A stretch of DNA of 64,000 nucleotides from Bacilli bacterium (GTDB lineage Bacteria; Bacillota_I; Bacilli_A; RFN20; CAG-826). Made by a program: the position numbers and the translations under genes. The stretch lies in contig JAFSOD010000004.1 of the NCBI GenBank assembly GCA_017447165.1, forward strand, positions 564,478-628,477. The letters run 5' to 3'. Shown here piece by piece: positions 23,308-35,234 of the stretch. Below the pieces are notes generated by a model, which worked only from the letters and a program-made list of their open reading frames with translations, had not been told where the DNA came from and did not search any database. Positions within the stretch are counted from its first letter, which is position 1, and each line of letters begins with the position of its first letter.

Positions 23308-23704
23308 AAATAGATTAATGTTTGTAAAAATGCCTTCAGATTAGGTGTATTGTGCTTTCATGATAGAATAAAAACTATCAGAAAGCAAAAATGGGATGTG
23401 ATTCCTCTTTTCTCTTGAAAACCATAGGTGGCTCATGCTTATTCTTTATATTGGCGAAGGTTTTATGTTTGTTGGACAAATACTCGCCTTAGACAAGCTA
23501 AGGTTTAAAATATGTTGGATGGTTTAAAATAACCATGAAAGGCATTGTGTTTTAGAGTGAAGTTATGTTAAAAAATACTATCTTAAAATAAAACACAGAA
23601 TTATATATTAATAAATTAATATATATGCATATTGATAAAAAATGGAATATTTTGATATTTTTGCTTGATTTAACAATTATATTTGTTATACTACAAGAGA
23701 TTTT

Positions 23705-24310
23705 ATGAGAAAGAGTCAAAAGTTTTATTTAGTAATTAAGACAATAATAGGGATATTTGGGGCTTTTATAGGTATGTTAGTGTGCCTACCTTTAATTTAT
23801 TGGTGGATATTTATTGTCAATTTTATTGTCACTAAAGGACATCCATTCTATGTTCAAAAAAGATTAGGAAAACATAAAAAGGTGTTTGGATTAATCAAAT
23901 TTAGAAGCATGAGAGTTGATGCGCCTGAAGTTGCTCCTAGCGATATTAGTGAAGATACTCAAAAGAGTATGGAAACAGGATTTGGCAAGTTCTTAAGAAG
24001 AACATCATTAGATGAGACACCTCAACTATTTAATATATTAATATGCCAAATGGCATTCATTGGTCCTAGACCAGGTGCTGCGCATAATGAAGAAGAACTA
24101 GTTAGACTTAGGGAAGCATATACTCCTAATGCGTTTGATGTTAAACCAGGTTTAGGAGGATGGGCTCAACTAAAGAATAATAGAGCCCATGATCCTGAGG
24201 CTAAAGCTTTATTAGATCATGAATATGTTAAGAATATATCTTTATGGTTAGATATGAAGATATTTGTCTTAACAGTCTTACATTTATTCGGTAGTGGAAA
24301 GGGGAAATAG
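23705..24310 (+). CDS. undecaprenyl-phosphate sugar phosphotransferase, small monotopic PglC/WcaJ-C-terminal type (Bac_transf); initiating transferase
   Basis: One N-terminal TM, then KRLGKHKKVFGLIKFRSMRVDAPE...DETPQLFNILICQMAFIGPRPG...PGLGGWAQLKNNR, the Bac_transf catalytic core. Confidence 0.85.
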   Translation: MRKSQKFYLVIKTIIGIFGAFIGMLVCLPLIYWWIFIVNFIVTKGHPFYVQKRLGKHKKVFGLIKFRSMRVDAPEVAPSDISEDTQKSMETGFGKFLRRTSLDETPQLFNILICQMAFIGPRPGAAHNEEELVRLREAYTPNAFDVKPGLGGWAQLKNNRAHDPEAKALLDHEYVKNISLWLDMKIFVLTVLHLFGSGKGK

Positions 24311-24424
24311 TTCCTCTTTTCTTTTTTTATGCTCTTTAACTTATGTTGCTATAAAAACGATTGGTGGCTCGTATTTGTCCTTAAGTGTTGATAAGTGTTG
24401 CTTTGTTTGCTAGACAAACACTCG

Positions 24425-24680
24425 TCGCATAGGGGAGATAGGCTTTATTGGACCTAGACCATTAATTGATAAAGTTGATGACCACATTACCATTGAGATG
24501 AGAAAACAAAATAGTTCTTTAAACTAGTTCCTGGCATTAGTGGATATGCGCAGATAAATGGGCGTATTGATATACCTCCTGAGGAGAAGGCCATATTAGA
24601 TGGGTTCTACTATGAACATATTTCTTTATGGTTTGATACTAGAATATTCATTATCACTTTTTACAAACATTATATTTAAG
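24425..24680 (+). pseudogene. degenerate, frameshifted 3' remnant of a second, divergent sugar-phosphotransferase gene
   Basis: Frame 1 gives GFIGPRPLIDKVDDHITIEMRKQNSSLN*. Frame 3 continues PGISGYAQINGRIDIPPEEKAILDGFYYEHISLWFDTRIFIITFYKHYI*, a Bac_transf C-terminus. There is no start and a frameshift. A terminator-like hairpin follows at ~24700. Confidence 0.55.
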
Positions 24681-24818
24681 AAAAAACAAACCTAAAAGTG
24701 AACAAGAAGGGAAATAGAAATCCTTCTTTTTTCACCTATGGTTTGTTTTTGATATCATAATATAATTAAATAGACTATTTTTAAAATGCGACATCCAATA
24801 TGATTAAGGAGATTGTTT

Positions 24819-25445
24819 ATGTATAGTTATCTTTTAAACAAAGAATTAAGGAATGAATTAAGAATGTATTGCGAGGAGAAGATTTTTTTATTGCAAAAAG
24901 AAGTAAGCGAATATTTTACATTTTCATTCAAATTAATTGGGAGTGGTGATAATCGCTTAATGACTATTAACGGAAACAACAAATCGATAGATTTGGATTA
25001 TAACATTGTTATTCAACGCGATAAAAAACAGCTCATTGGGGAACCAGAGCAGATTAAAAAAATATTTATGAGAGCATTCAAAGATGTTTGTGGTCGTGAC
25101 ACCAAAGTGTCTGACTCTACACAAGTGATTACTTGTAAGGTTGGAAAAATTGATGGGTATGATTTCTCGTTTGACATCGCTATATTCGTGGAAGGGAATG
25201 ATGGATTTATTTATAAACTTATTAACGACAAAAAAACAATACCATCGAGATATGTATGGAATAGAATCCCGAGTTCTAAAGATTTCAATTTCAAGTTTTC
25301 ATATTTAAAAAGAAATGGGCATTGGGAAGATATCAAATCCTTATATTTAAAAAAGAAAAATTTGTATTTAACTAGAGGCTCAGATAAAACGTCTTTTTCA
25401 ATTTTAATTGAAACCGTGAATGAAATTATGCAAAAGATGGAATAG
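24819..25445 (+). CDS. Pol-beta-superfamily nucleotidyltransferase (minimal NTase/SMODS-like)
   Basis: hG[GS]-x9-13-DxD motif LIGSGDNRLMTINGNNKSIDLDYNIVI and a third acidic residue in YDFSFDIAIF. An AAGGAG RBS lies 7 nt before the ATG at 24819; the track start at 24813 is a TTG. Confidence 0.5.
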   Translation: MYSYLLNKELRNELRMYCEEKIFLLQKEVSEYFTFSFKLIGSGDNRLMTINGNNKSIDLDYNIVIQRDKKQLIGEPEQIKKIFMRAFKDVCGRDTKVSDSTQVITCKVGKIDGYDFSFDIAIFVEGNDGFIYKLINDKKTIPSRYVWNRIPSSKDFNFKFSYLKRNGHWEDIKSLYLKKKNLYLTRGSDKTSFSILIETVNEIMQKME

Positions 25446-25448
25446 CTT

Positions 25449-26126
25449 ATGATTGATTATGACAAATTCTTTTCAATTATAGATATTGATGAGAGCGAGA
25501 AAGAATCCGCTAAAGAATACATTGCTTTAAGAGGGTTGCAGGAACACATCGATATGGCAACATATTTATCGTCATTTCTTGCAGCAAGGAAACCAACATA
25601 TAAGGAAGTTGCAACAGCATTTAGATACGATAAGAGAATAAGAAGAATTCTATATAAATATATAGGCTTATTAGAAGAGATGTATCGTGCATACATTTGT
25701 AACAATTTTAATAACATCAAGCAATTAGGATTAAAGACCAGCAAGCCATTATTTCAATATATTTCATTGTCTCTATTTAGTTCTCTCGTTAATATAGTGT
25801 GGTCACTAGATGAAAACCATAAAAAAGAATTATTTGAAGGCAAGGCAGTTCTTAAAAAGAATTTAGATGCTCTTGTTACTTTACGAAACGCAATAGGACA
25901 CAATAGGACAATTATCAATTACCGAGATTATAAAGAAGCAACATTAAGCACTGGAGAGGTCGGAAATTCTTTGTTAATTAATATAAAAAATATGTTGGAC
26001 TTTTTGCCGTCGGAAATTAGAAACAAATGCATTAAAGAAACTAATGAAGCAAATAGAAGCGGGACAAAGAAAATAAAAAACCAAGTAGATTGGGCGCTTA
26101 TTTCAATGCTTGTTATTAAGTTATAA
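25449..26126 (+). CDS. Abi_2 (AbiD/AbiF-like)/HEPN-family protein
   Basis: Rx4H HEPN motif in VTLRNAIGHNRTI. Upstream FRYDKRIRRILYKYIGLLEEMYRAYI resembles the Abi_2 family. Starts 4 nt after the NTase gene. Confidence 0.5.
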   Translation: MIDYDKFFSIIDIDESEKESAKEYIALRGLQEHIDMATYLSSFLAARKPTYKEVATAFRYDKRIRRILYKYIGLLEEMYRAYICNNFNNIKQLGLKTSKPLFQYISLSLFSSLVNIVWSLDENHKKELFEGKAVLKKNLDALVTLRNAIGHNRTIINYRDYKEATLSTGEVGNSLLINIKNMLDFLPSEIRNKCIKETNEANRSGTKKIKNQVDWALISMLVIKL

Positions 26127-26202
26127 CGTATAAACAAATTGTTTAAAATGAAAATAGAATTGTTTATAAACTTTTTTGTGGTTTATAATTAAACCAATCA
26201 AT

Positions 26203-27234
26203 ATGCAAAGAAAAAAATATCAAGTATTTACGCCAGAGGCAGTAGTTGAAAAAATGCTGGATCTTTTAGGGTATAAAGGCGAATTAATTATTAATAAAAG
26301 AATTATTGATATTTCCTGTGGAGATGGTGCTTTTTTGGTTTCGGCCGCTGAAAGATTAATTGCTGAATGCAAAAACAAGAATTTGACAACAAAAGAAATC
26401 ATGGAAAAGTGTTCGCAAAACATTTGCGGTATTGAAATTGAAACTGAATATTATAAAAAATGTATTAAACGCCTTAATGAAGTTATTAAAAAGCACTTTA
26501 AAAAGTTATACATTAAATGGAAAAACGTAAATAACGGCGATGGACTTTTACACTCAGAGGATAATTATGATTTTGTTGTTGGCAATCCGCCTTATATTTC
26601 ATATAAAGATATGTCAAGCGAACAAAAAGAGTATCTTAGGAACAACTTTTTAAGTTGCAAGCAATACAGATTTGATTATTCGTTTGCTTTTATCGAAAAA
26701 AGCCTTAACATTTTGTCTGATCAAGGCAAAGGATGCATTATTTCCCCTATTAATATGTATAGGATTAAATCTGGAATTGGAATAAAAGAATTAATCCGTC
26801 CTTATCTTGATGTTATAGTTGATGTTACAGAAGATAACATTTTTCCAAGAGTATTAACGAACCCTGTCATTTCTGTTTTCAGCAAAACAAAAAAAACCAA
26901 TGAAATTGTTTTGTTAAAGCGCGATTTAGCTCCAAGGAAATTGCCAAGGGAAACGTTCGAAAACGACATCAACTTGTTTATAAACGTCGGATCGCGTCGT
27001 TTTGGAGATTATTTTTCGGTTCACAATGGTGTGGCGACTTTGTATAACGAAGCATTTATTGTTAATAGCGATAGTGATCTTGAATCAGAAGTATTAATGA
27101 ATGCTAGAAGTCCGAAGTTTAGCAGATTCAATTTGAATAAGAAAATTATTTTCCCTTATTTGCACTCCAGTGGCACAATAAACAAAATTGATGAAAAAGA
27201 TTTTTTTGAAAAATATCCAAACTGTCCAAATTGA
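26203..27234 (+). CDS. N6-adenine-specific DNA methyltransferase (gamma-class, Eco57I/TaqI-like)
   Basis: Motif I IIDISCGDGAFLVSAAE and motif IV VVGNPPYISYK in gamma order. A TATAAT box sits 13 nt upstream of the ATG at 26203; the track start at 26176 is a TTG. Confidence 0.75.
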   Translation: MQRKKYQVFTPEAVVEKMLDLLGYKGELIINKRIIDISCGDGAFLVSAAERLIAECKNKNLTTKEIMEKCSQNICGIEIETEYYKKCIKRLNEVIKKHFKKLYIKWKNVNNGDGLLHSEDNYDFVVGNPPYISYKDMSSEQKEYLRNNFLSCKQYRFDYSFAFIEKSLNILSDQGKGCIISPINMYRIKSGIGIKELIRPYLDVIVDVTEDNIFPRVLTNPVISVFSKTKKTNEIVLLKRDLAPRKLPRETFENDINLFINVGSRRFGDYFSVHNGVATLYNEAFIVNSDSDLESEVLMNARSPKFSRFNLNKKIIFPYLHSSGTINKIDEKDFFEKYPNCPN

Positions 27235-27604
27235 TCATATTGATTCATCTGAGCCAAAAGACAACACGTTAAAAAATTTGGCACCGGCATGTTTTGATTG
27301 TAATCAAAAGAAAAAAGACATTTGTGACAAACATTCACTTGCTTCTATTATAAATCCATATAATTCTATACATAATGTATTTCAAAGGAATGATGATTAT
27401 AGCATTTGCATAAAAGATGGTTACATAGATAATGAAGATGTTAGGGTGTTTTTTGAAAAACTTAAGCTTGGATCTCAAATTAAAAGAATTGATTATCTTC
27501 TATCGTGTATTCGCTCAATCAAAGATAAACAAGAAAATAGATTTATTAAATCTTGTTTGTCTGATATATATAATTCACTTCTAGACAAAAGAATAATGAT
27601 GTAA
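27191..27604 (+). CDS. HNH-family endonuclease domain protein. Its 5' end overlaps the MTase 3' end in another frame, so it may be a frameshifted C-terminal domain of the MTase
   Basis: QIDHIDSSEPKDNTLKNLAPACFDCNQKKKD is an HNH core (His-...-Asn-...-CxxCN). No RBS was found. A 44-nt frame overlap contains a T7 run (27201..27207). Confidence 0.45.
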   Translation: MKKIFLKNIQTVQIDHIDSSEPKDNTLKNLAPACFDCNQKKKDICDKHSLASIINPYNSIHNVFQRNDDYSICIKDGYIDNEDVRVFFEKLKLGSQIKRIDYLLSCIRSIKDKQENRFIKSCLSDIYNSLLDKRIMM

Positions 27605-27649
27605 GTCCAAACTGTAAATCATACTCTCATACGTTTTAGTTAAACAAAT

Positions 27650-27917
27650 GGCTTTTATTGGTCCTAGACCAGGAACTGCTAAAATCTGAGTGAGTCAATT
27701 AGACTTAGAGAAGCATATACTCCTAATGCATTTGATGTTAAACTTGGATTAAGTGGATGGGCACAACTCAAGAATAAGAGAGCACACAACCCAGAAAATA
27801 AAGCTAAATTAGATCTTGAATATGTAAAGAATTTATCTTTATGGCTAGATATTAAAATATTTGTGTTAACAGTATTTCGTTTATTTGGTAGTGGAAAGGG
27901 GAAGTAATTCCTCTTTT
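27650..27917 (+). repeat. direct duplicate (~85-90% identical, frameshifted) of the last ~250 nt plus terminator of the sugar-transferase gene at 24058..24326
   Basis: atggcttttattggtcctagaccagg...gcatatactcctaatgcatttgatgttaaac...ttatctttatggctagatat...ggtagtggaaaggggaagtaattcctctttttt parallels ATGGCATTCATTGGTCCTAGACCAGG...GCATATACTCCTAATGCGTTTGATGTTAAAC...GGTAGTGGAAAGGGGAAATAGTTCCTCTTTTC. The copy has stops and frameshifts. Confidence 0.7.
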
Positions 27918-27997
27918 TTAGTGATCTAGAATTTCTATTTAATAAGGGTCAATATGTTACGCTTAATTATTATAGATAGTCATGATATCATTCTCTT

Positions 27998-28936
27998 ATG
28001 ATACCAAACGAATTTAAATATTTTTGTCAAAACGAAATGCATCTACCTTACGCAGACGATTCTTGCGTTACATCAGTTAAGAGCAGTATTTTTAGTTGCC
28101 TTATTCATGATAGCTGTTATTTCAGCAACGACATTAAAAAATCAAATATCATAGCGAATTGTATTTTTATTTTTTTATTGGATCGACCATTCTACAACAG
28201 ATCTGATTATTGGTATTTTTATTATGAAGAAAATAATACACCAGGTAACGGACGCCGCATTAATACATATCAGTTATTTCTTAAATATCCAATAAATGTT
28301 ATAGGCAAAACAGATTTATGCTTAAAACTTATTGGCTTGCACCTTGGAAATATTTCGAAAGACATTTCAAACACTTTTATAGAAAGACATTACCGTATTT
28401 TTTTACCAGAAGATAAACTCACTGGTTATTACACAATGTTAGATTTCTTGGTTCAACGCGGATTAATTTTTAATTATAAGCTTACTGTTGAAGGGTGGAA
28501 AAGATTTGATGAAATAACAAACAAGAACACTTCATCAAATCAATTGTTTATAGCAAGCCAATTTGAAGGATTCGATGAAATAATTGGTGTGGTTAAAGAC
28601 TCTGTTATAGAGTGTGGCTATTCACCAGTTTACATGAAAGATCACCAAACGAATAACTATATAATGCCTGAGATTTTTTCTTTAATAGATAATAGCAAAG
28701 CTGTTATCGGAGAAATATCATCAAATAATAATGGTGTATATTTTGAAATTGGTTATGCAAAAGGCAAAGGAATAGATGTTATTTTGATATGCAAAGCTCA
28801 GCGAGATGATAGCGGAAAATTAATAACTAAAACACATTTTGATGTTTCTCAAATTTCTATTATTTACTATGACGATAAAGAAGATTTAAAGAAAAAACTA
28901 ACGTTTAGAATCGAAAATACAATAAGCAAGAGTTAA
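27998..28936 (+). CDS. hypothetical protein with a C-terminal nucleoside 2-deoxyribosyltransferase-like (SLOG/Rossmann) domain
   Basis: The C-terminus QLFIASQFEGFDEIIGVV...NYIMPEIFSLIDNSKAVIGEISSNNNGVYFEIGYAKGKGIDVILIC resembles the NDT-family core with its catalytic Glu (E[LI]GYA). N-terminal 180 aa unrecognised. Confidence 0.4.
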   Translation: MIPNEFKYFCQNEMHLPYADDSCVTSVKSSIFSCLIHDSCYFSNDIKKSNIIANCIFIFLLDRPFYNRSDYWYFYYEENNTPGNGRRINTYQLFLKYPINVIGKTDLCLKLIGLHLGNISKDISNTFIERHYRIFLPEDKLTGYYTMLDFLVQRGLIFNYKLTVEGWKRFDEITNKNTSSNQLFIASQFEGFDEIIGVVKDSVIECGYSPVYMKDHQTNNYIMPEIFSLIDNSKAVIGEISSNNNGVYFEIGYAKGKGIDVILICKAQRDDSGKLITKTHFDVSQISIIYYDDKEDLKKKLTFRIENTISKS

Positions 28937-29046
28937 ATAGCGTATCAACTAATGTTTGCTTTTTAGCATAAATTTCATACATCTTTAAATATAATGTTTT
29001 ATAGAATTAGGTGCCATTTTGTCACAATAGTTATATAATAGTGAAC

Positions 29047-30450
29047 ATGACACTAAAAGAATTAAGAAAATTAAAGAATCTAACACAGTTAGAAGCATCT
29101 GAGATTACAGGTGTACCACTCCGCTCATATAAGCGTTTAGAAAGTGATGAGAAGTATGTTTCATCACTTAAATATAAACAAGCATATTCTATATTAAAGG
29201 GCCATAGTGGCACTTTTATTGATGATATTAAATTATCATCTAAAACTATTTCTGTTGCGGGTACTGGCTATGTCGGTTTATCTAATGCGATTATCTTATC
29301 GCAACATAATAAAGTATACGCAGTAGATGTAGTTCCTTCTAAAGTTGAACTAATTAACTCTAAGAAATCTCCTATAGTAGATAAAGAGATAGATGAGTAT
29401 TTAGCTACTAAGGAATTAGATTTAGTGGCAACATTAGATGGTGATAAGGCTTATAAAGAATCTGAAATAGTGATTATTGCTACTCCTACTAACTATGATA
29501 GTGTGACTAATAAGTTTGATACCTCTAGCGTAGAATCTGTTATTGAACAAGTTAAAAGAGTGAATCCTAATGCTTGGATCATTGTTAAATCAACAGTGGG
29601 TGTTGGCTTTACTAGATATGTTAGAGAGAAATATAACTATGACAAGATATTATTCTCTCCAGAGTTCTTAAGAGAAGGCAAAGCCTTATATGATAACTTA
29701 TATCCATCTCGTATCGTGGTGGGTGTACCAGAAAAAGTAGAACCTTATTTATCTAAAGCAAAAGAGTTTGCTGCTTTATTAAAACAAGGTGCACTTAAAC
29801 CTAATGTTGATGTGCATATCTTAGGATATACAGAAGCAGAGGCTGTTAAGTTATTCGCTAATACTTATTTAGCGCTTAGAGTCGCATATTTTAATGAATT
29901 AGATACTTTTGCCCAAACCAAAGGTTTAGATACCTTAGATATTATTAAAGGAGTATGTGGAGATCCTAGAATTGGTGATTTCTATAATAATCCATCCTTT
30001 GGGTATGGAGGATATTGCTTACCTAAAGACACTAAAGAGTTAAGAGCGAACTTTGAAGATGTACCAGAAAATCTTATTTCTGCGATCGTGGAATCTAATA
30101 GAACTAGAAAACAATTTATTTGTGATGATGTATTAAGAAAAGCGGGATATAAGAATGATGGTAAAGACGATATTACTGTTGGTATATATAGACTTACCAT
30201 GAAAAGTGGTAGTGATAACTTTAGACAATCCTCTATTCAAGGGGTGATGAAACGCTTACACGCGAAAGGTGTGAGAATAGTTATTTATGAACCAACACTT
30301 AAAGATGAAGAATTCTTTAACTGTAAGGTTATAAAAGACTTTGATAGCTTTAAGTCTATGAGTAAGGTGATTATCGCTAATAGATATGATTCATCTTTAG
30401 ATGATGTTAAAGATAAAGTCTACACAAGAGACTTATTAAGGAGAGATTAA
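29047..30450 (+). CDS. ugd: UDP-glucose 6-dehydrogenase with an in-frame N-terminal XRE-type helix-turn-helix extension
   Basis: [19 protein letters not shown] (NAD-binding) and the catalytic [14 protein letters not shown] motif. The N-terminal 60 aa [31 protein letters not shown] are HTH_XRE-like. The ATG at 29047 is preferred over the track GTG at 29011. A TATAAT box lies 8 nt upstream, suggesting a leaderless mRNA. Confidence 0.75.
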
Positions 30451-30451
30451 C

Positions 30452-31477
30452 ATGAGCAGCAAAAAGGCCTTCGTTATTTTATCTTTTGTTGGGTTTGTTT
30501 CTTTGTGTGGACTTGTTATAGCTGACATTTGCTTACATTTTTTAAATAACATAGATTCGTTGATTATTCGACTTTTAGAGTTGATTTTTGGTTGTTTAAC
30601 ATCCGCATCAATTTCTTTAACGGTATCATTTTCTAATAATATAAAACAAACAGTAAAGTCTAATTCTGGCACAATAACAAATATTACATATAACCATTCG
30701 CCAATATCCGATCTTGGTCTTATGCTTCCAACATGCACTCCGGTCCAATTAAAGAACGAATTAATTAAGGTTGGAAATGACCTTGAAATATTGAAAAAAG
30801 AGAACGTAGAAAATATTGTCAATTTAGTGTATGAAAGAATTAAAGAAAGCGACTCGATTCATCCAATTGACTTGAACTTTGTGTTAAAATACATTGACTG
30901 TGCATCTACTATTTCAGATAAAGATATTCAAAAAATATGGGCTGAATTACTTGTTTCGAAAGTGATCGATGGAGTGACAACATCAAAAAGGCTACTTGAT
31001 ACTATAAAAAATCTATCTTCCTATGAAGCGAAATTGTTTGAAAAGGTTGCCATACTTTGTACACCCGAAGGTGTATTATTTGAAAATTTTAAAGAAGATT
31101 TTTCTTTTGAAGAATTATCTACTTTGACCGAAGCTGGACTCATTAAACCACACGATTTATTGACTGATACATTTCATCTTGCACCCAGAACCAACAAAAC
31201 TGTTCTCGTTAAAAGTGACTCTATTGTTATTTTAGGCTCAAATGATTCTGAAAAAGAAAAAGAACTATCATATTCTTGCTCGATGTTAACCACGGAAGGT
31301 ATTATATTAAAGAAAATATTAAAGCTAAAAATTGATGATAGTAGTATGATAAAACTTGCTTTAGAAATGAAAAAAGTTGCTTCAAGAGAGGGTGTAAAAA
31401 TATCTGCCCACAGCATAAATTTCACAACCCAAAATGGTTTGAATTATAAACTTGAAGATTTGATTGGTAATAAATAA
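30452..31477 (+). CDS. hypothetical protein with N-terminal hydrophobic segments, inserted between ugd and the epimerase
   Basis: N-terminus AFVILSFVGFVSLCGLVIADICLHF...FGCLTSASISLTV followed by a ~250 aa soluble region with no recognised motif. Confidence 0.4.
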   Translation: MSSKKAFVILSFVGFVSLCGLVIADICLHFLNNIDSLIIRLLELIFGCLTSASISLTVSFSNNIKQTVKSNSGTITNITYNHSPISDLGLMLPTCTPVQLKNELIKVGNDLEILKKENVENIVNLVYERIKESDSIHPIDLNFVLKYIDCASTISDKDIQKIWAELLVSKVIDGVTTSKRLLDTIKNLSSYEAKLFEKVAILCTPEGVLFENFKEDFSFEELSTLTEAGLIKPHDLLTDTFHLAPRTNKTVLVKSDSIVILGSNDSEKEKELSYSCSMLTTEGIILKKILKLKIDDSSMIKLALEMKKVASREGVKISAHSINFTTQNGLNYKLEDLIGNK

Positions 31478-32499
31478 TGTATATTTTAGTCACAGGTGCA
31501 GCGGGTTTTATTGGTTCATTCCTAGCCAAGAAATTATTAGAAAGAACTGATCATGAGATTGTTGGGGTTGATAACCTTAATGACTATTATGATGTGTCTT
31601 TAAAAGAAGAAAGATTAAAGATGTTGTCTCCTTTTAAGAACTTTAAGTTCGTTAAAGGCGATATATCAGATAAAGCATTTATCGATAAATTATTTGAGGA
31701 ATATCGTTTTGATATTGTTGTTAATTTAGCGGCGCAAGCAGGGGTGAGATACTCTATCGATCATCCTGATGTTTATATTAATTCCAATATTATTGGATTT
31801 TATAACATATTAGAAGCTTGTAGATATCATATGCCTAAACATTTAGTGTACGCTTCTAGTTCTTCTGTATATGGAGGAAACACTAAAGTTCCATTTAGTA
31901 CAGAAGATAAGGTAGATAATCCAGTTAGTTTATATGCGGCTACTAAGAAATCTAATGAATTATTAGCCCATGCTTATTCTAAGTTATATAACATACCTAC
32001 TACTGGATTAAGATTCTTTACAGTATACGGCCCAATGGGTAGACCTGATATGGCGTATTTCTCATTTACTAATAAACTTATTAAAGGAGAGACTATTGAG
32101 ATCTTTAATTATGGTAACTGTAAAAGAGATTTTACTTATGTAGATGATATTGTGGAAGGCATTATCAAGGTTATGGGTAAAGCACCTTCTAAAAAAGATG
32201 GAGAAGATGGATTACCTATTCCTCCATATAAAATCTATAACATTGGTAATAATAACCCTGAGAACTTATTAGACTTTGTTGAGATATTGTCTGAAGAGTT
32301 AGTAAGAGCAGGAGTATTACCTAAAGATTATGATTTTGAATCTCATAAGAAATTGGTGGCGATGCAAAAAGGTGATGTCCCTATTACTTACGCAGATACA
32401 TCTGATTTAGAAAGAGATTTTGGATATAAACCTTCTACATCTTTAAGAGACGGATTAAGAAGATTCGCTGAGTGGTATTATTCCTATTATATTAAATAG
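31477..32499 (+). CDS. UDP-glucuronate 4-epimerase (NAD-dependent epimerase, Cap1J/WbnF-like)
   Basis: MYILVTGAAGFIGSFLAKKLL...VDNLNDYYDVSLKEERL...YASSSSVYG...YAATKK is the typical GlcA/GalA epimerase subfamily sequence. Confidence 0.8.
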   Translation: MYILVTGAAGFIGSFLAKKLLERTDHEIVGVDNLNDYYDVSLKEERLKMLSPFKNFKFVKGDISDKAFIDKLFEEYRFDIVVNLAAQAGVRYSIDHPDVYINSNIIGFYNILEACRYHMPKHLVYASSSSVYGGNTKVPFSTEDKVDNPVSLYAATKKSNELLAHAYSKLYNIPTTGLRFFTVYGPMGRPDMAYFSFTNKLIKGETIEIFNYGNCKRDFTYVDDIVEGIIKVMGKAPSKKDGEDGLPIPPYKIYNIGNNNPENLLDFVEILSEELVRAGVLPKDYDFESHKKLVAMQKGDVPITYADTSDLERDFGYKPSTSLRDGLRRFAEWYYSYYIK

Positions 32500-32521
32500 C
32501 AATTACTTAAGTTAATTATTT

Positions 32522-32550
32522 GCCCATATTATTTATATGGGCTTTTTTAT
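32522..32550 (+). terminator. rho-independent terminator after the epimerase gene
   Basis: gcccatat-tattta-tatgggc followed by tttttt. Confidence 0.6.
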
Positions 32551-32678
32551 AAATATCAAAAGACTAGTTCTTAATTTAATATTGGTATCTATTTTAAAAT
32601 AACTAATCTATTGACATAAAAGTGATCTATAATTAAAATATATTTGTTCAAAAAACTTGAACTAACGGAGGTGTTACT

Positions 32679-33836
32679 ATGGTTATCTTGGATTTAAAAT
32701 TAAACAATGTTTTAGGTTTTAAAGACATTCATTTCAATTTTACATATCCGAAGAAATTAAGAAAGAATTCTTTGGGAGAAGAGTGCTTAAAAGGAGTCCC
32801 TAATTTCAGATATAAAAAAGTTAATGTCGTTATGGGTAGCAATTCTAATGGAAAATCATCTTTGGGCAAAACTATCTGGGGGCTCTGTTTATTTTTTCGT
32901 AAAAAAGAAAGTAACAATCTTATTAAGTTGATGTCTGATGGTTCTGATTCAATGAATATATCAATTGATTATGTTTGTGCATCAGAAACTCAAAAATATA
33001 TTTTAAACAGAGTGGCTATCAGAGTGAAAAAAGATGAAAATTTAACTACTGGATACAGTATTAAAATGGATTATGATTGTGTTACCCTTAGAGGTGACGA
33101 CACTTACGAAACAGCCTGTAAAAATTTAGTTAGAAAAATTTATAATTTGGATTATTTAGACTGCTTAAATGCAATTTCCCATTCCGACGGATGGTTTATT
33201 GCAATGCCAATTACTGAGACAGGTTTTGATAAATTTGAATTGGAACTTGAAAAGCCAAACAGAGAACTGTTTTCAAATATATTATTTAAAGTTTTGAATA
33301 CACTTGACCCCAATATTCAGTCTTCTACAGTTAGTAACGAAATTGATGATGCATATATTATCAAATTTGATGATGGAAAAAATACCATTGTCAAATCTGG
33401 TGATCGAATAACTGATATTAGATATTTGTCCAGCGGAACAAAATATGGTTTTATAATTGCAACTGTCATTTATTCAATTGGAAAGCAACATAATGGTTTG
33501 TTTTATATTGATGAGCTTTTTTCTTATGTTGATTCTGATATAGAAATCGCAATATTAAATTTAATGATTTCGCTACTTGGGGATTGCGAGCAACTATTTT
33601 TTTCAACACACAACTCTGAAGTTTTATTACTCCCATATCCTTTACATTCGTTTATGTTTTTAGGGAAAGAAAAAGTCGATGATCAAATTAAGATTAAGAC
33701 CATTTGTGCGTCAGATGTTGAAAAGAGAAATAATGTCGTTGTAAAGAATTTATACGATAATGACTATTTCGATATTTCGCCAGATTCTTCCAGAATTTTT
33801 GAGATTGAGGAGTTATTTGATAATGGGGAACAATAA
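32679..33836 (+). CDS. ABC/OLD-family (AAA_15/21-like) ATPase; first gene of a three-gene operon
   Basis: RecF-like N-terminus ILDLKLNNVLGFKDIHFNF...VNVVMGSNSNGKSSLGKTIW (Walker A). C-terminal LFYIDELFSYVD (Walker B/D-loop) and FFSTHNSEVL (H-loop). A GGAGGTG RBS lies 7 nt upstream. Confidence 0.6.
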   Translation: MVILDLKLNNVLGFKDIHFNFTYPKKLRKNSLGEECLKGVPNFRYKKVNVVMGSNSNGKSSLGKTIWGLCLFFRKKESNNLIKLMSDGSDSMNISIDYVCASETQKYILNRVAIRVKKDENLTTGYSIKMDYDCVTLRGDDTYETACKNLVRKIYNLDYLDCLNAISHSDGWFIAMPITETGFDKFELELEKPNRELFSNILFKVLNTLDPNIQSSTVSNEIDDAYIIKFDDGKNTIVKSGDRITDIRYLSSGTKYGFIIATVIYSIGKQHNGLFYIDELFSYVDSDIEIAILNLMISLLGDCEQLFFSTHNSEVLLLPYPLHSFMFLGKEKVDDQIKIKTICASDVEKRNNVVVKNLYDNDYFDISPDSSRIFEIEELFDNGEQ

Positions 33837-34341
33837 TTTAATTCAGTATTTTGTAGAAGGTGAATGTGAGGAAAAATTTATTAATGTTTTCAAAACCGGC
33901 AGCGATGCTTTTTTAAAGGCTGGTAAAGTTGAAGTTTTGAATCCTGTCAATAAGATTATAACCGAGGCTAGAGCGAGAACTATTAAGCAAAATACAACTG
34001 TTGTTCTTGTATATGACATAGACAAAGGAAATATAGATGTTTTGCTTAGCAACATCAAAACACTTAAAAACCACTCTTTAACAAAAATTATTCACATTCA
34101 GTCAGTAATGAATTTTGAAGATGAAATAGTAAGATCAACTAGTATTAACTCTATTGATGAAATGTTTTCCACGAAAGGAGTGGAAAATTTTAAGGAAAAA
34201 TTTATTGGTCATAAGAATATTAAGTCTAAATTGGAAAAAGTAAAATTTGATAATTCTATTTTTTGGTCTAAAGTCTATAGAAATGGCCAATTTAAGGATT
34301 TCGCAATTAAGGGTTCGATAAAAAACATAAGAAAAGAATAA
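33823..34341 (+). CDS. small Toprim-like domain protein (AriB/OLD-C-terminal-like) that overlaps the ATPase gene
   Basis: Conserved Glu in LIQYFVEGECEEKF and a DxD in VVLVYDIDKGNIDVL, spaced as in Toprim. The ATG at 33823 overlaps the ATPase stop by 14 nt. Confidence 0.45.
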   Translation: MGNNNLIQYFVEGECEEKFINVFKTGSDAFLKAGKVEVLNPVNKIITEARARTIKQNTTVVLVYDIDKGNIDVLLSNIKTLKNHSLTKIIHIQSVMNFEDEIVRSTSINSIDEMFSTKGVENFKEKFIGHKNIKSKLEKVKFDNSIFWSKVYRNGQFKDFAIKGSIKNIRKE

Positions 34342-34368
34342 TCAAAGCGCGGAAAGGAGCAAAACAAA

Positions 34369-34977
34369 ATGGAAAGACATAAAGTGTTTATAAGTTATTA
34401 TCATAAAGACCAGTCATATAAGGATTTGATTTGTGATGTTTGGAATTCTAATCAAGAGTTATTTGACGATTATTCTGTAGGGTTTGGAGACATTGATGAC
34501 ACAAACAAATCTGATGAAACAATTCGCAAAATTATTAGAGATGAATATATTGCTGATGCCACTGTCCTTCTTTTGCTATGCGGCCCTGAAACAAAAACCA
34601 GGAAATATATCGATTGGGAATTACATGCCGCCATGTACAATACAGAAAATAATCCAAAAATGGGCATTGTGGTTATTAATTTACCCAATTCTAGGAATGG
34701 TGTTAGAGCGCCAACGGATCGAGAAAAAGAAATAGTTGCTCCAAACAGTAACTGGACTTCGTTTGACACAAGAAAAGAATTCGAAGAAAGATATCCTTCA
34801 GCGCCATCTAGAATTATTGATTCTTTATACAAATGTCATTCAGATATTACTTTTGTGGATTGGAGCACCATAAATAATAATCATTTGTTACTAAAAGAAT
34901 TAATTGACTATGCTTTTAAAAGAAAAGATGAGATTGAATATGATACATCAGCTACATTGAGGAGAAAAAATAGTTAA
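34369..34977 (+). CDS. TIR-like domain protein (ThsB/DUF1863-like)
   Basis: HKVFISYYHKDQSYKDLICDVWNS...ATVLLLLCGPETKTRKYIDWELHAA follows the ThsB-type TIR-like pattern (F[FI]S[FY]H..D; vLIG.eT..s.wV.wEi..A). An AAGGAG RBS is present. Confidence 0.6.
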   Translation: MERHKVFISYYHKDQSYKDLICDVWNSNQELFDDYSVGFGDIDDTNKSDETIRKIIRDEYIADATVLLLLCGPETKTRKYIDWELHAAMYNTENNPKMGIVVINLPNSRNGVRAPTDREKEIVAPNSNWTSFDTRKEFEERYPSAPSRIIDSLYKCHSDITFVDWSTINNNHLLLKELIDYAFKRKDEIEYDTSATLRRKNS

Positions 34978-35234
34978 TCTATATATAATGACGTATTATC
35001 TATACAAACGTAATTTAAATATTTAGTAAAAAATTTAAAAAAAGAAAGCAAATATATAAGTTTATTGTTCCTACGCTTTTGAGGTTTGCTGTACAAAATT
35101 TATAAAACAAATACTTATAGTGCCAGTAGCACTTTTATTGTTAATAAAAAACCAATATAAATGATTACAAATTAACAAAACATAATTAGCATTTTATCTA
35201 ATTATGATATAATTTGTCGCAAGGGGTTAAAATT

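Follow-up and report, generated by a model that had tools for sequence, protein, structure and literature searches.

A Two-Gene Module Pairing a Predicted cGAS/DncV-like Nucleotidyltransferase with an AbiF-Class HEPN Ribonuclease in Gut Firmicutes and Their Phages

INTRODUCTION

Two adjacent genes on the forward strand of a 64,000-nucleotide stretch of Bacilli DNA (contig JAFSOD010000004.1, positions 564,478 to 628,477; hereafter the window) encode a putative nucleotidyltransferase (NTase) and a putative HEPN ribonuclease (RNase), designated here A and B. Coordinates are given as positions in this window. The first-pass annotation, made from the sequence alone, read the pair as an NTase with an Abi_2/HEPN protein, larger than classical MNT-HEPN modules, in which the NTase either regulates the RNase or produces a signal for it. 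The locus therefore raises the question of what the two proteins are, whether they form one system, and how the enzyme might control the RNase.

HEPN RNases of the AbiD/AbiF class are thought to be the source of Cas13. Members of the AbiF type are known as RNA-guarded toxins, and the pair described here represents a coherent lineage without the RNA guard, obligately coupled to an enzyme with a predicted cGAS/DncV-like fold. The A-B pair is proposed as a two-gene module, uncatalogued until now, that gut Firmicutes and their phages carry for phage defense or in a toxin-antitoxin-like role.

RESULTS AND DISCUSSION

Structure and Active Site of A

The 208- and 225-codon open reading frames (ORFs) and the motifs that had been quoted for them were all found in the sequence as described. 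Three nucleotides (CTT) separate the stop codon of A from the ATG of B, and B thus starts at the fourth nucleotide past the stop. The two genes and their conserved elements are as follows.

24819 to 25445, + strand: gene A, 208 residues, ATG start and TAG stop; predicted miniature cGAS/DncV-like (CD-NTase-fold) nucleotidyltransferase
24939 to 24947, + strand: G41-S42-G43 of A, NTase G-S loop after strand beta1; G41 and S42 invariant (81/81)
24990 to 24998, + strand: D58-L59-D60 of A, putative metal-binding D-x-D on strand beta2; D58 and D60 invariant (81/81)
25173 to 25175, + strand: D119 of A, putative third catalytic Asp in the FSFDIAI strand; invariant (81/81)
25449 to 26126, + strand: gene B, 225 residues, ATG start; predicted AbiD/AbiF-class (Abi_2) HEPN ribonuclease and toxic effector
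25620 to 25646, + strand: F58-R66 of B (FRYDKRIRR), invariant basic helix common to AbiF (YRFDKKLR)
25884 to 25901, + strand: R146-H151 of B (RNAIGH), HEPN Rx4H catalytic motif; R146, H151, and N152 invariant in 32 sequences

The active-site motifs of A are IGSGDNRLMTINGNNKSIDLDYN, which carries G41-S42-G43 and D58-L59-D60, and FSFDIAIF, which carries D119. The residues G41, S42, D58, D60, and D119 do not vary among 81 full-length sequences collected from the A family, the most distant included. This invariance across the family alignments, together with that found for the motifs of B in 32 sequences, indicates that the motifs of the two proteins are not chance matches. The order of residues in A follows the active-site pattern of the cGAS/DncV-like nucleotidyltransferases (CD-NTases), G-S ... 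[DE]h[DE] ... h[DE]h.

The structure of A was modeled with AlphaFold2 (AF2) from a 26-sequence alignment, giving a predicted local distance difference test (pLDDT) value of 90.9 and a predicted template modeling (pTM) score of 0.86. The model has the two parts expected of a cGAS/DncV-like fold, a predicted Pol-beta NTase core and a C-terminal helical lobe, with G41-S42 located after beta1, the long strand that follows carrying D58-x-D60, and a later one carrying D119. When the model was used as the query for Foldseek, the top 42 matches were all CD-NTases (best E-value of 1.7e-5; query-normalized TM-scores of 0.39 to 0.58). CdnB, CdnG, CdnD, CdnE, and DncV, all CD-NTases, are the nearest structural relatives of A by two methods, and neither MNT-type antitoxins nor AbiEii/MenT-type NTases appear among the top structural matches. 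A is approximately 100 residues shorter than the matched CD-NTase chains, with 208 residues vs 272 to 374.

No meaningful match to A was found in Pfam, NCBIfam, PADLOC, or PHROGs. Assignment to SMODS, NTP_transf_2, Polbeta, AbiEii, or any other family of these four collections was rejected, and matches of A to Csm2 and to an aminotransferase were discarded as noise. The NTase models of Pfam gave zero matches at E ≤ 1 to 26 members of the A family, the SMODS (PF18144) and PADLOC cyclase models for cyclic-oligonucleotide-based antiphage signaling systems (CBASS) did not match A, and the A-family profile gave 0 matches at E ≤ 10 among the sequences of the Protein Data Bank (PDB). No homologue of A was found among the PLSDB plasmids, and PADLOC v2 (2023) has no model for it. 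The proposed Pol-beta fold was supported by a confident model, by CD-NTase structural matches, and by invariant catalytic residues; the description of A as SMODS-like held for the fold and the active site and failed for the PF18144 profile. Since the fold is clear and the catalytic residues are invariant, the most likely reading is that A has enzymatic activity and is a pared-down NTase of the cGAS/DncV-like kind.

Identification of B as an AbiF-Class HEPN Ribonuclease

The HEPN motif of B reads LRNAIGHNR (R146...H151). In the 32-sequence alignment R146, H151, and N152 never vary, and neither does the basic helix ATAFRYDKRIRR. This helix, F58-R66, is the sole stretch of B that aligns with PbAbiF at the sequence level. 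The match of B to the Pfam Abi_2 model barely passes (25.8 vs 25.6 bits) and is accompanied by sub-threshold matches to RiboL-PSP-HEPN and DUF3644. Precomputed Abi_2 matches are present in 47 of the 57 clusters of B homologues, and the PHROGs label for B is abortive-infection protein (2e-7).

An AF2 model of B was obtained with a pLDDT of 94.2. The model corresponds to the AbiF core, and 197 of its 225 residues align to PDB entry 8vz6, the complex of PbAbiF with its noncoding RNA (ncRNA). B combines the Abi_2/AbiF-type HEPN fold with an Rx4-6H motif, by which membership in AbiF is recognized. The Abi_2 and PHROGs matches, the invariant Rx4H motif, and the AbiF-like helix identify B, by sequence and model, as a compact HEPN RNase of the AbiD/AbiF class whose catalytic motif is intact. 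The Abi_2-like features ascribed to B were thus recovered, and so was its small size relative to typical AbiF proteins (225 residues vs 297 to 300 in PbAbiF, approximately 70 shorter). Only Abi_2 and HEPN models match B, and no nucleotide-sensing domain (SAVED, STING, CARF, etc.) was detected in it.

Co-conservation of A and B

Homologous loci were collected with A in a genome scan (55 loci) and with B in metagenome and viral sequences (29 and 2 loci, respectively). From the A side, B or a remnant of B lies directly downstream in 29 of the 31 assessable loci in which A is at least 40% identical. B is missing from L013 and L034, and L012 keeps just the first ~50 codons of B next to an intact A; no locus with an intact B and no A was found. 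From the B side, A is directly upstream in 27 of the 28 assessable loci that contain the N-terminal part of B, and the order is reversed in one (L079). The remaining B-side loci consist of one at a contig end and two with C-terminal B-like fragments alone. These two are short metagenome contigs on which the C-terminal B-like half stands without an A gene (L088, 594 to 911; L089, 774 to 1055), and they may represent either decay or another architecture that has the C-terminal region of B in common.

Both genes are full-length in 52 loci, which represent 45 distinct pairs. The order is A followed by B in 51 of the 52, and the spacing across full pairs ranges from -14 to +15 nucleotides. A lack of co-conservation elsewhere had been named in advance as grounds for abandoning the pairing; instead, searches from either gene show the pair to be co-conserved at identities as low as ~27-28%, and a mirror-tree comparison of the pairwise-identity matrices of A and B gave r = 0.84 (Mantel 0/999). 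The 45 pairs span Bacilli, Clostridia, Erysipelotrichales, Acholeplasmatales, and one spirochaete, plus gut phages.

No third conserved gene was found; the best-represented flanking family is present in 6 of the 45 loci, all of a single clade, which leaves a module of exactly two genes. A methyltransferase (MTase) located downstream and seemingly shared with the Clostridia loci was dismissed as generic N6-MTase similarity at 27% identity.

A highly diverged pair is present in phage NatCom_17901 (L092, PV036423.1; 3298 to 4567), with the order B followed by A and an overlap of 26 nucleotides. The B-type protein was found with hhalign (96.8% probability, E-value of 2e-10) and keeps RYDKNLR and RNQTMH. 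The genome of this gut phage (Ca. Heliusvirales) is complete; both genes are annotated in it as hypothetical and lie near anaerobic ribonucleotide reductase genes.

Absence of the RNA Antitoxin

The AbiD/F systems are type III toxin-antitoxins composed of a protein and an ncRNA, in which the upstream abiF-motif RNA (RF03085) blocks the HEPN active site (PMC13064643, PMC12373285). In lactococcal AbiD/F the upstream DNA is better conserved than the gene itself (PMC13064643). The RF03085 model gave no match in positions 23500 to 28500 of the window, even at E ≤ 1, and none at the gathering threshold in nine related A-B loci. A repeat search detected no tandem repeats. When the 270 nucleotides upstream of A were aligned for seven diverged loci, no conservation was apparent (43% column identity). 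The lone Rfam match, Histone3, falls below threshold and is spurious. In many loci the gene 5' of A ends merely ~12 nucleotides before A. The canonical RNA guard is absent, and the NTase gene A holds the upstream position instead.

The Wider A Superfamily

An exhaustive search with the A profile retrieved 886 clusters (50% identity) at E ≤ 1e-3, and 544 at E ≤ 1e-10, a family that none of Pfam, NCBIfam, PADLOC, and PHROGs detects. Most members contain 205 to 230 residues. Among the longer proteins, A is joined to PIN7 (P0146, 5.6e-16) and to HNH (P0157, 2e-10), and both of these fusions retain the GS/DxD/D residues; an uncharacterized C-terminal domain of ~150 residues is fused to A in P0135 and P0149, and P0217 is a tandem A-A protein.

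A solo branch (L037 to L060), 29-35% identical to A, has the catalytic G-S/DxD/D residues intact. No B-type gene was found within 1.5 kb of these genes by a broadened hidden Markov model (HMM) search (--max, E ≤ 10) and a motif scan. Several of these loci adjoin AbiEi/AbiEii-like pairs or methyltransferases (for example L055, 8001 to 8639). At L037 (8001 to 8660 and 8674 to 9282) and L038, an unannotated ORF of 202 residues follows 13 nucleotides 3' of the A-type gene and may be a different partner.

Proposed Mechanism and Alternatives

The mechanism that we put first, tentatively, is that nucleotidyl transfer by A keeps the toxic RNase B inactive, in replacement of the RNA antitoxin. We infer that B would be the toxic effector and A its negative regulator. 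The chemistry could take either of two forms. A may covalently transfer a nucleoside monophosphate (NMP) to B, as MntA NMPylates HepT (PMC7641770, PMC11586414); the invariant residues Y51, T56, Y60, and Y71 of B would be candidate sites for such an adduct. Alternatively, A may constitutively make a nucleotide or oligonucleotide ligand that fills the RNA-binding and active site of B, in the manner of HalB and mCpol; Hailong and Panoptes provide precedents for a constitutive inhibitory NTase product (PMC13434031). Phage infection would then remove or outpace the inhibition through host shut-off, a phage nuclease, a sponge, or an NTase inhibitor, and B, once freed, would cleave RNA and halt the infected cell.

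Negative control is favored because A sits at the antitoxin position of the AbiF and HepT-MntA modules, because A comes first in a translationally coupled pair, and because an AbiF-class toxin that lacks its RNA plug needs another restraint. The existence of A-only and decayed-B loci, set against the lack of any intact B without A, argues for an antitoxin-like role. The fusion of A-type NTases to PIN7 and HNH points to regulation of nucleases in cis, and fused MNT-HEPN proteins are a precedent for such an NTase-nuclease fusion (PMC13000451).

Several observations weigh against this assignment. B does not have the tyrosine of the HepT Rx4HxY motif that is AMPylated by MntA; it reads H151-N152-R153 at this place, and Y158 is not conserved. 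The solo branch with intact catalysis is unexplained by a purely antitoxin role and implies stand-alone action. The structural kin of A are activating signal synthases, the three-dimensional positions of its catalytic residues were derived from motif order and secondary structure, and the asymmetry between A-only and B-only loci rests on just 3 loci (L013, L034, and L012).

The main competitor, possible and clearly less probable than restraint by A, is signaling of a minimal CBASS-like kind: A would be silent until infection and would then make a (cyclic) oligonucleotide messenger that activates B. That CD-NTases are the closest structural relatives of A by two methods, with strictly conserved catalytic residues, is in line with such a role, and a two-gene operon of synthase and effector in a defense island is the layout of type I CBASS. 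Csm6 and Csx1 are HEPN RNases activated by cyclic oligoadenylates, so that a HEPN effector of this kind has parallels, and solo A-type NTases fit a signal synthase more easily than an antitoxin. B has no recognizable sensor domain, on the other hand, and the gene architecture resembles that of a toxin-antitoxin pair. The two options offered by the first-pass annotation, an NTase that regulates the RNase and a signaling NTase, are still the two leading hypotheses. Activation by A would mean that no CBASS-like pair of synthase and effector known so far is smaller, and that B is a novel type of HEPN receptor lacking a sensor domain, while restraint by A would extend the logic of enzymatic antitoxins and inhibitory signals to the Cas13-ancestor lineage.

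A narrower version of the negative-control mechanism, in which the AbiF-class RNase would have exchanged its encoded RNA antitoxin for an enzyme and A would constitutively make an untemplated oligonucleotide or nucleotide inhibitor that plugs the HEPN site and is depleted by phage nucleases, sponges, or shut-off, is rather unlikely to be correct in that particular form. If this version is true, the 886-cluster superfamily may represent a general nuclease-guarding NTase module with HEPN, PIN, and HNH partners. Lower still in probability is an arrangement in which A and B are two nucleic-acid-directed arms, or a sensor and an effector, with neither signaling nor antitoxin chemistry between them; A might, for example, sense or tag phage RNA or DNA or host tRNA in the manner of MenT/AbiEii-type or terminal uridylyltransferase (TUTase)-like enzymes, or gate B allosterically within a complex.

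It is very improbable that the locus is an ordinary AbiF type III system whose RNA antitoxin was missed, for example within the A transcript, with A incidental or accessory. B is structurally AbiF-like, AbiD/F systems are regarded as consisting of protein and RNA (PMC13064643), and RNA motifs can diverge past detection by covariance models. Positions 23500 to 28500 of the window (at E ≤ 1) and nine related loci (at the gathering threshold) are nevertheless negative for RF03085, tandem repeats are lacking, the upstream region is unconserved, and in many loci the preceding gene leaves only the ~12 nucleotides noted above. Nor is A incidental, since it is well folded, has invariant catalytic residues, and coevolves with B to ~27% identity. 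A divergent member of the classical HepT-MntA (type VII) family, which would share the domain classes (Pol-beta NTase and HEPN) and the order (NTase first, overlapping), is scarcely credible because the profile and structure comparisons of A and B refute that family assignment, although an analogous mechanism is conceivable.

Sequence Signals and Genomic Context of the Pair

The sequence signals upstream of A are listed below.

24682 to 24750, + strand: imperfect hairpin with a T-run after it, 5' of A-B; inverted repeat, RNA fold z = -3.0
24729 to 24776, + strand: promoter-like hexamers, weak consensus matches; site count not above shuffle expectation
24806 to 24811, + strand: Shine-Dalgarno AAGGAG, 7 nucleotides 5' of the ATG of A, read from the sequence

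The hairpin is locus-specific, is not kept in the upstream alignment of seven diverged loci, and is probably an insulator or terminator that sets A-B apart as a transcription unit. Because the number of hexamer sites does not exceed the shuffle expectation, the interval that contains them is merely a plausible position for a promoter.

The pair in the window is located within a defense island, which is itself inside a polysaccharide-biosynthesis cluster. The island contains an Eco57I-type MTase with an HNH remnant, a weak TIR-like/deoxyribosyltransferase-like gene, a DUF2806/Abi_alpha gene, an AbiLi-like ATPase, and a ThsB-like TIR. From 27998 to 35000, defense-type genes are interleaved with housekeeping sugar genes.

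26203 to 27604: Eco57I/N6-type DNA MTase ORF of 343 residues overlapping an HNH-nuclease fragment of 138 residues (TTG start, other frame)
27998 to 28936: protein of 312 residues with weak TIR-like and nucleoside-deoxyribosyltransferase-like matches
29011 to 30450: UDP-glucose dehydrogenase (housekeeping sugar gene)
30452 to 31477: DUF2806/Abi_alpha protein
31477 to 32499: epimerase (housekeeping sugar gene)
32679 to 33836: AbiLi/AAA_21-type ATPase
33760 to 34341: ORF of 193 residues overlapping the AbiLi-type ATPase
34369 to 34977: ThsB-like TIR protein (PADLOC, 1.9e-10)

The exact B protein was found on 23 contigs. A-B is constant among these strains, and the genes just downstream vary: in L095 an intact MTase of 467 residues is followed by a HATPase_c_3 gene of 727 residues, and in L093 shorter remnants are present. 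The slot immediately after A-B is thus hypervariable and scarred by recombination.

The flanks of A-B differ among loci and are rich in defense genes, and some pairs adjoin methyltransferases and helicases. IMG/VR viral contigs carry two pairs, in one case behind phage tail genes, and a deposited phage genome carries another. The defense-island and prophage contexts are observed directly, and A-B appears to be a self-contained, mobile two-gene module of the abortive-infection or toxin-antitoxin-like type.

At L005 (1 to 419) a classical MNT (NTP_transf_2/Polbeta) and HepT-like pair is present ~5.5 kb upstream of A-B. The two kinds of NTase-HEPN module can therefore coexist as distinct systems in one genome.

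Comparison with Known Systems

In the AbiD/AbiF systems represented by PbAbiF-ncRNA (PDB 8vz6) and C. difficile AbiFCd-RCd22 an RNA is present, whereas A-B has neither an abiF motif nor a conserved upstream region and carries an NTase gene instead. Because the RNA that defines AbiF type III was tested for and is absent, A-B lies strictly outside that class. The Abi2/AbiD/AbiF contexts listed by Anantharaman et al. in 2013 are restriction-modification and ParB/HNH only, and no description of an AbiF protein paired with a cGAS-like NTase was found in the open-access literature searched.

The likeness to HepT-MntA lies in a Pol-beta NTase encoded directly upstream of, and translationally coupled to, a HEPN RNase, with abutting or overlapping genes in this order in 51 of the 52 A-B pairs, and in the occurrence of fused versions of both systems. 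The difference is that A resembles CD-NTases and not MNT enzymes, that B resembles AbiF and not HepT, and that both A-B proteins are larger. A and B match neither the MNT models (PF01909/PF18765) nor HepT (PF01934/DUF86, Rx4HxY), and the suggestion that this is no classical MNT-HEPN pair was upheld, the proteins belonging to different families.

The CD-NTases of CBASS and other cGAS-like enzymes contain ~270-400 residues compared with 208 in A, which has no SMODS HMM match. A-B is without the Cap2, Cap3, and HORMA accessory genes of CBASS, and B is without a known cyclic-nucleotide sensor domain.

Among two-gene defense systems, PD-T4-2 (DUF262 with a RiboL-PSP-type HEPN) resembles A-B in having an AbiD/F-related HEPN protein. 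B gave a weak match to PD-T4-2_B (E-value of 0.0015, with similarity over ~20 residues). Identity with PD-T4-2 was rejected, as the partner there is a DUF262 (ParB-like) NTPase and not an NTase (PMC10952713).

Hailong (the HalB NTase with the HalA channel) and Panoptes (mCpol with a 2TM effector) both use a constitutive product to restrain a toxic effector, and phage interference triggers defense. Their effectors are membrane proteins, whereas B is a predicted RNase, and their synthases belong to other families; HalB is not among the top structural matches of A. Inhibitory signaling in A-B would be purely by analogy with these systems.

A-B resembles an NTase-guarded HEPN toxin, yet it is neither HepT-MntA nor strictly AbiF type III, and at the sequence level A is not a CD-NTase. 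As a module it is real, coherent, and open to testing, but it does not amount to a categorically new principle. A and B are small and confidently predicted, which makes the module easy to test, and it should enter the tools for annotation of defense systems. If A does make a ligand that plugs the HEPN site of B, an enzymatically synthesized antitoxin would link the type III and type VII toxin-antitoxins with CBASS-type synthases and with the inhibitory signaling of Hailong and Panoptes.

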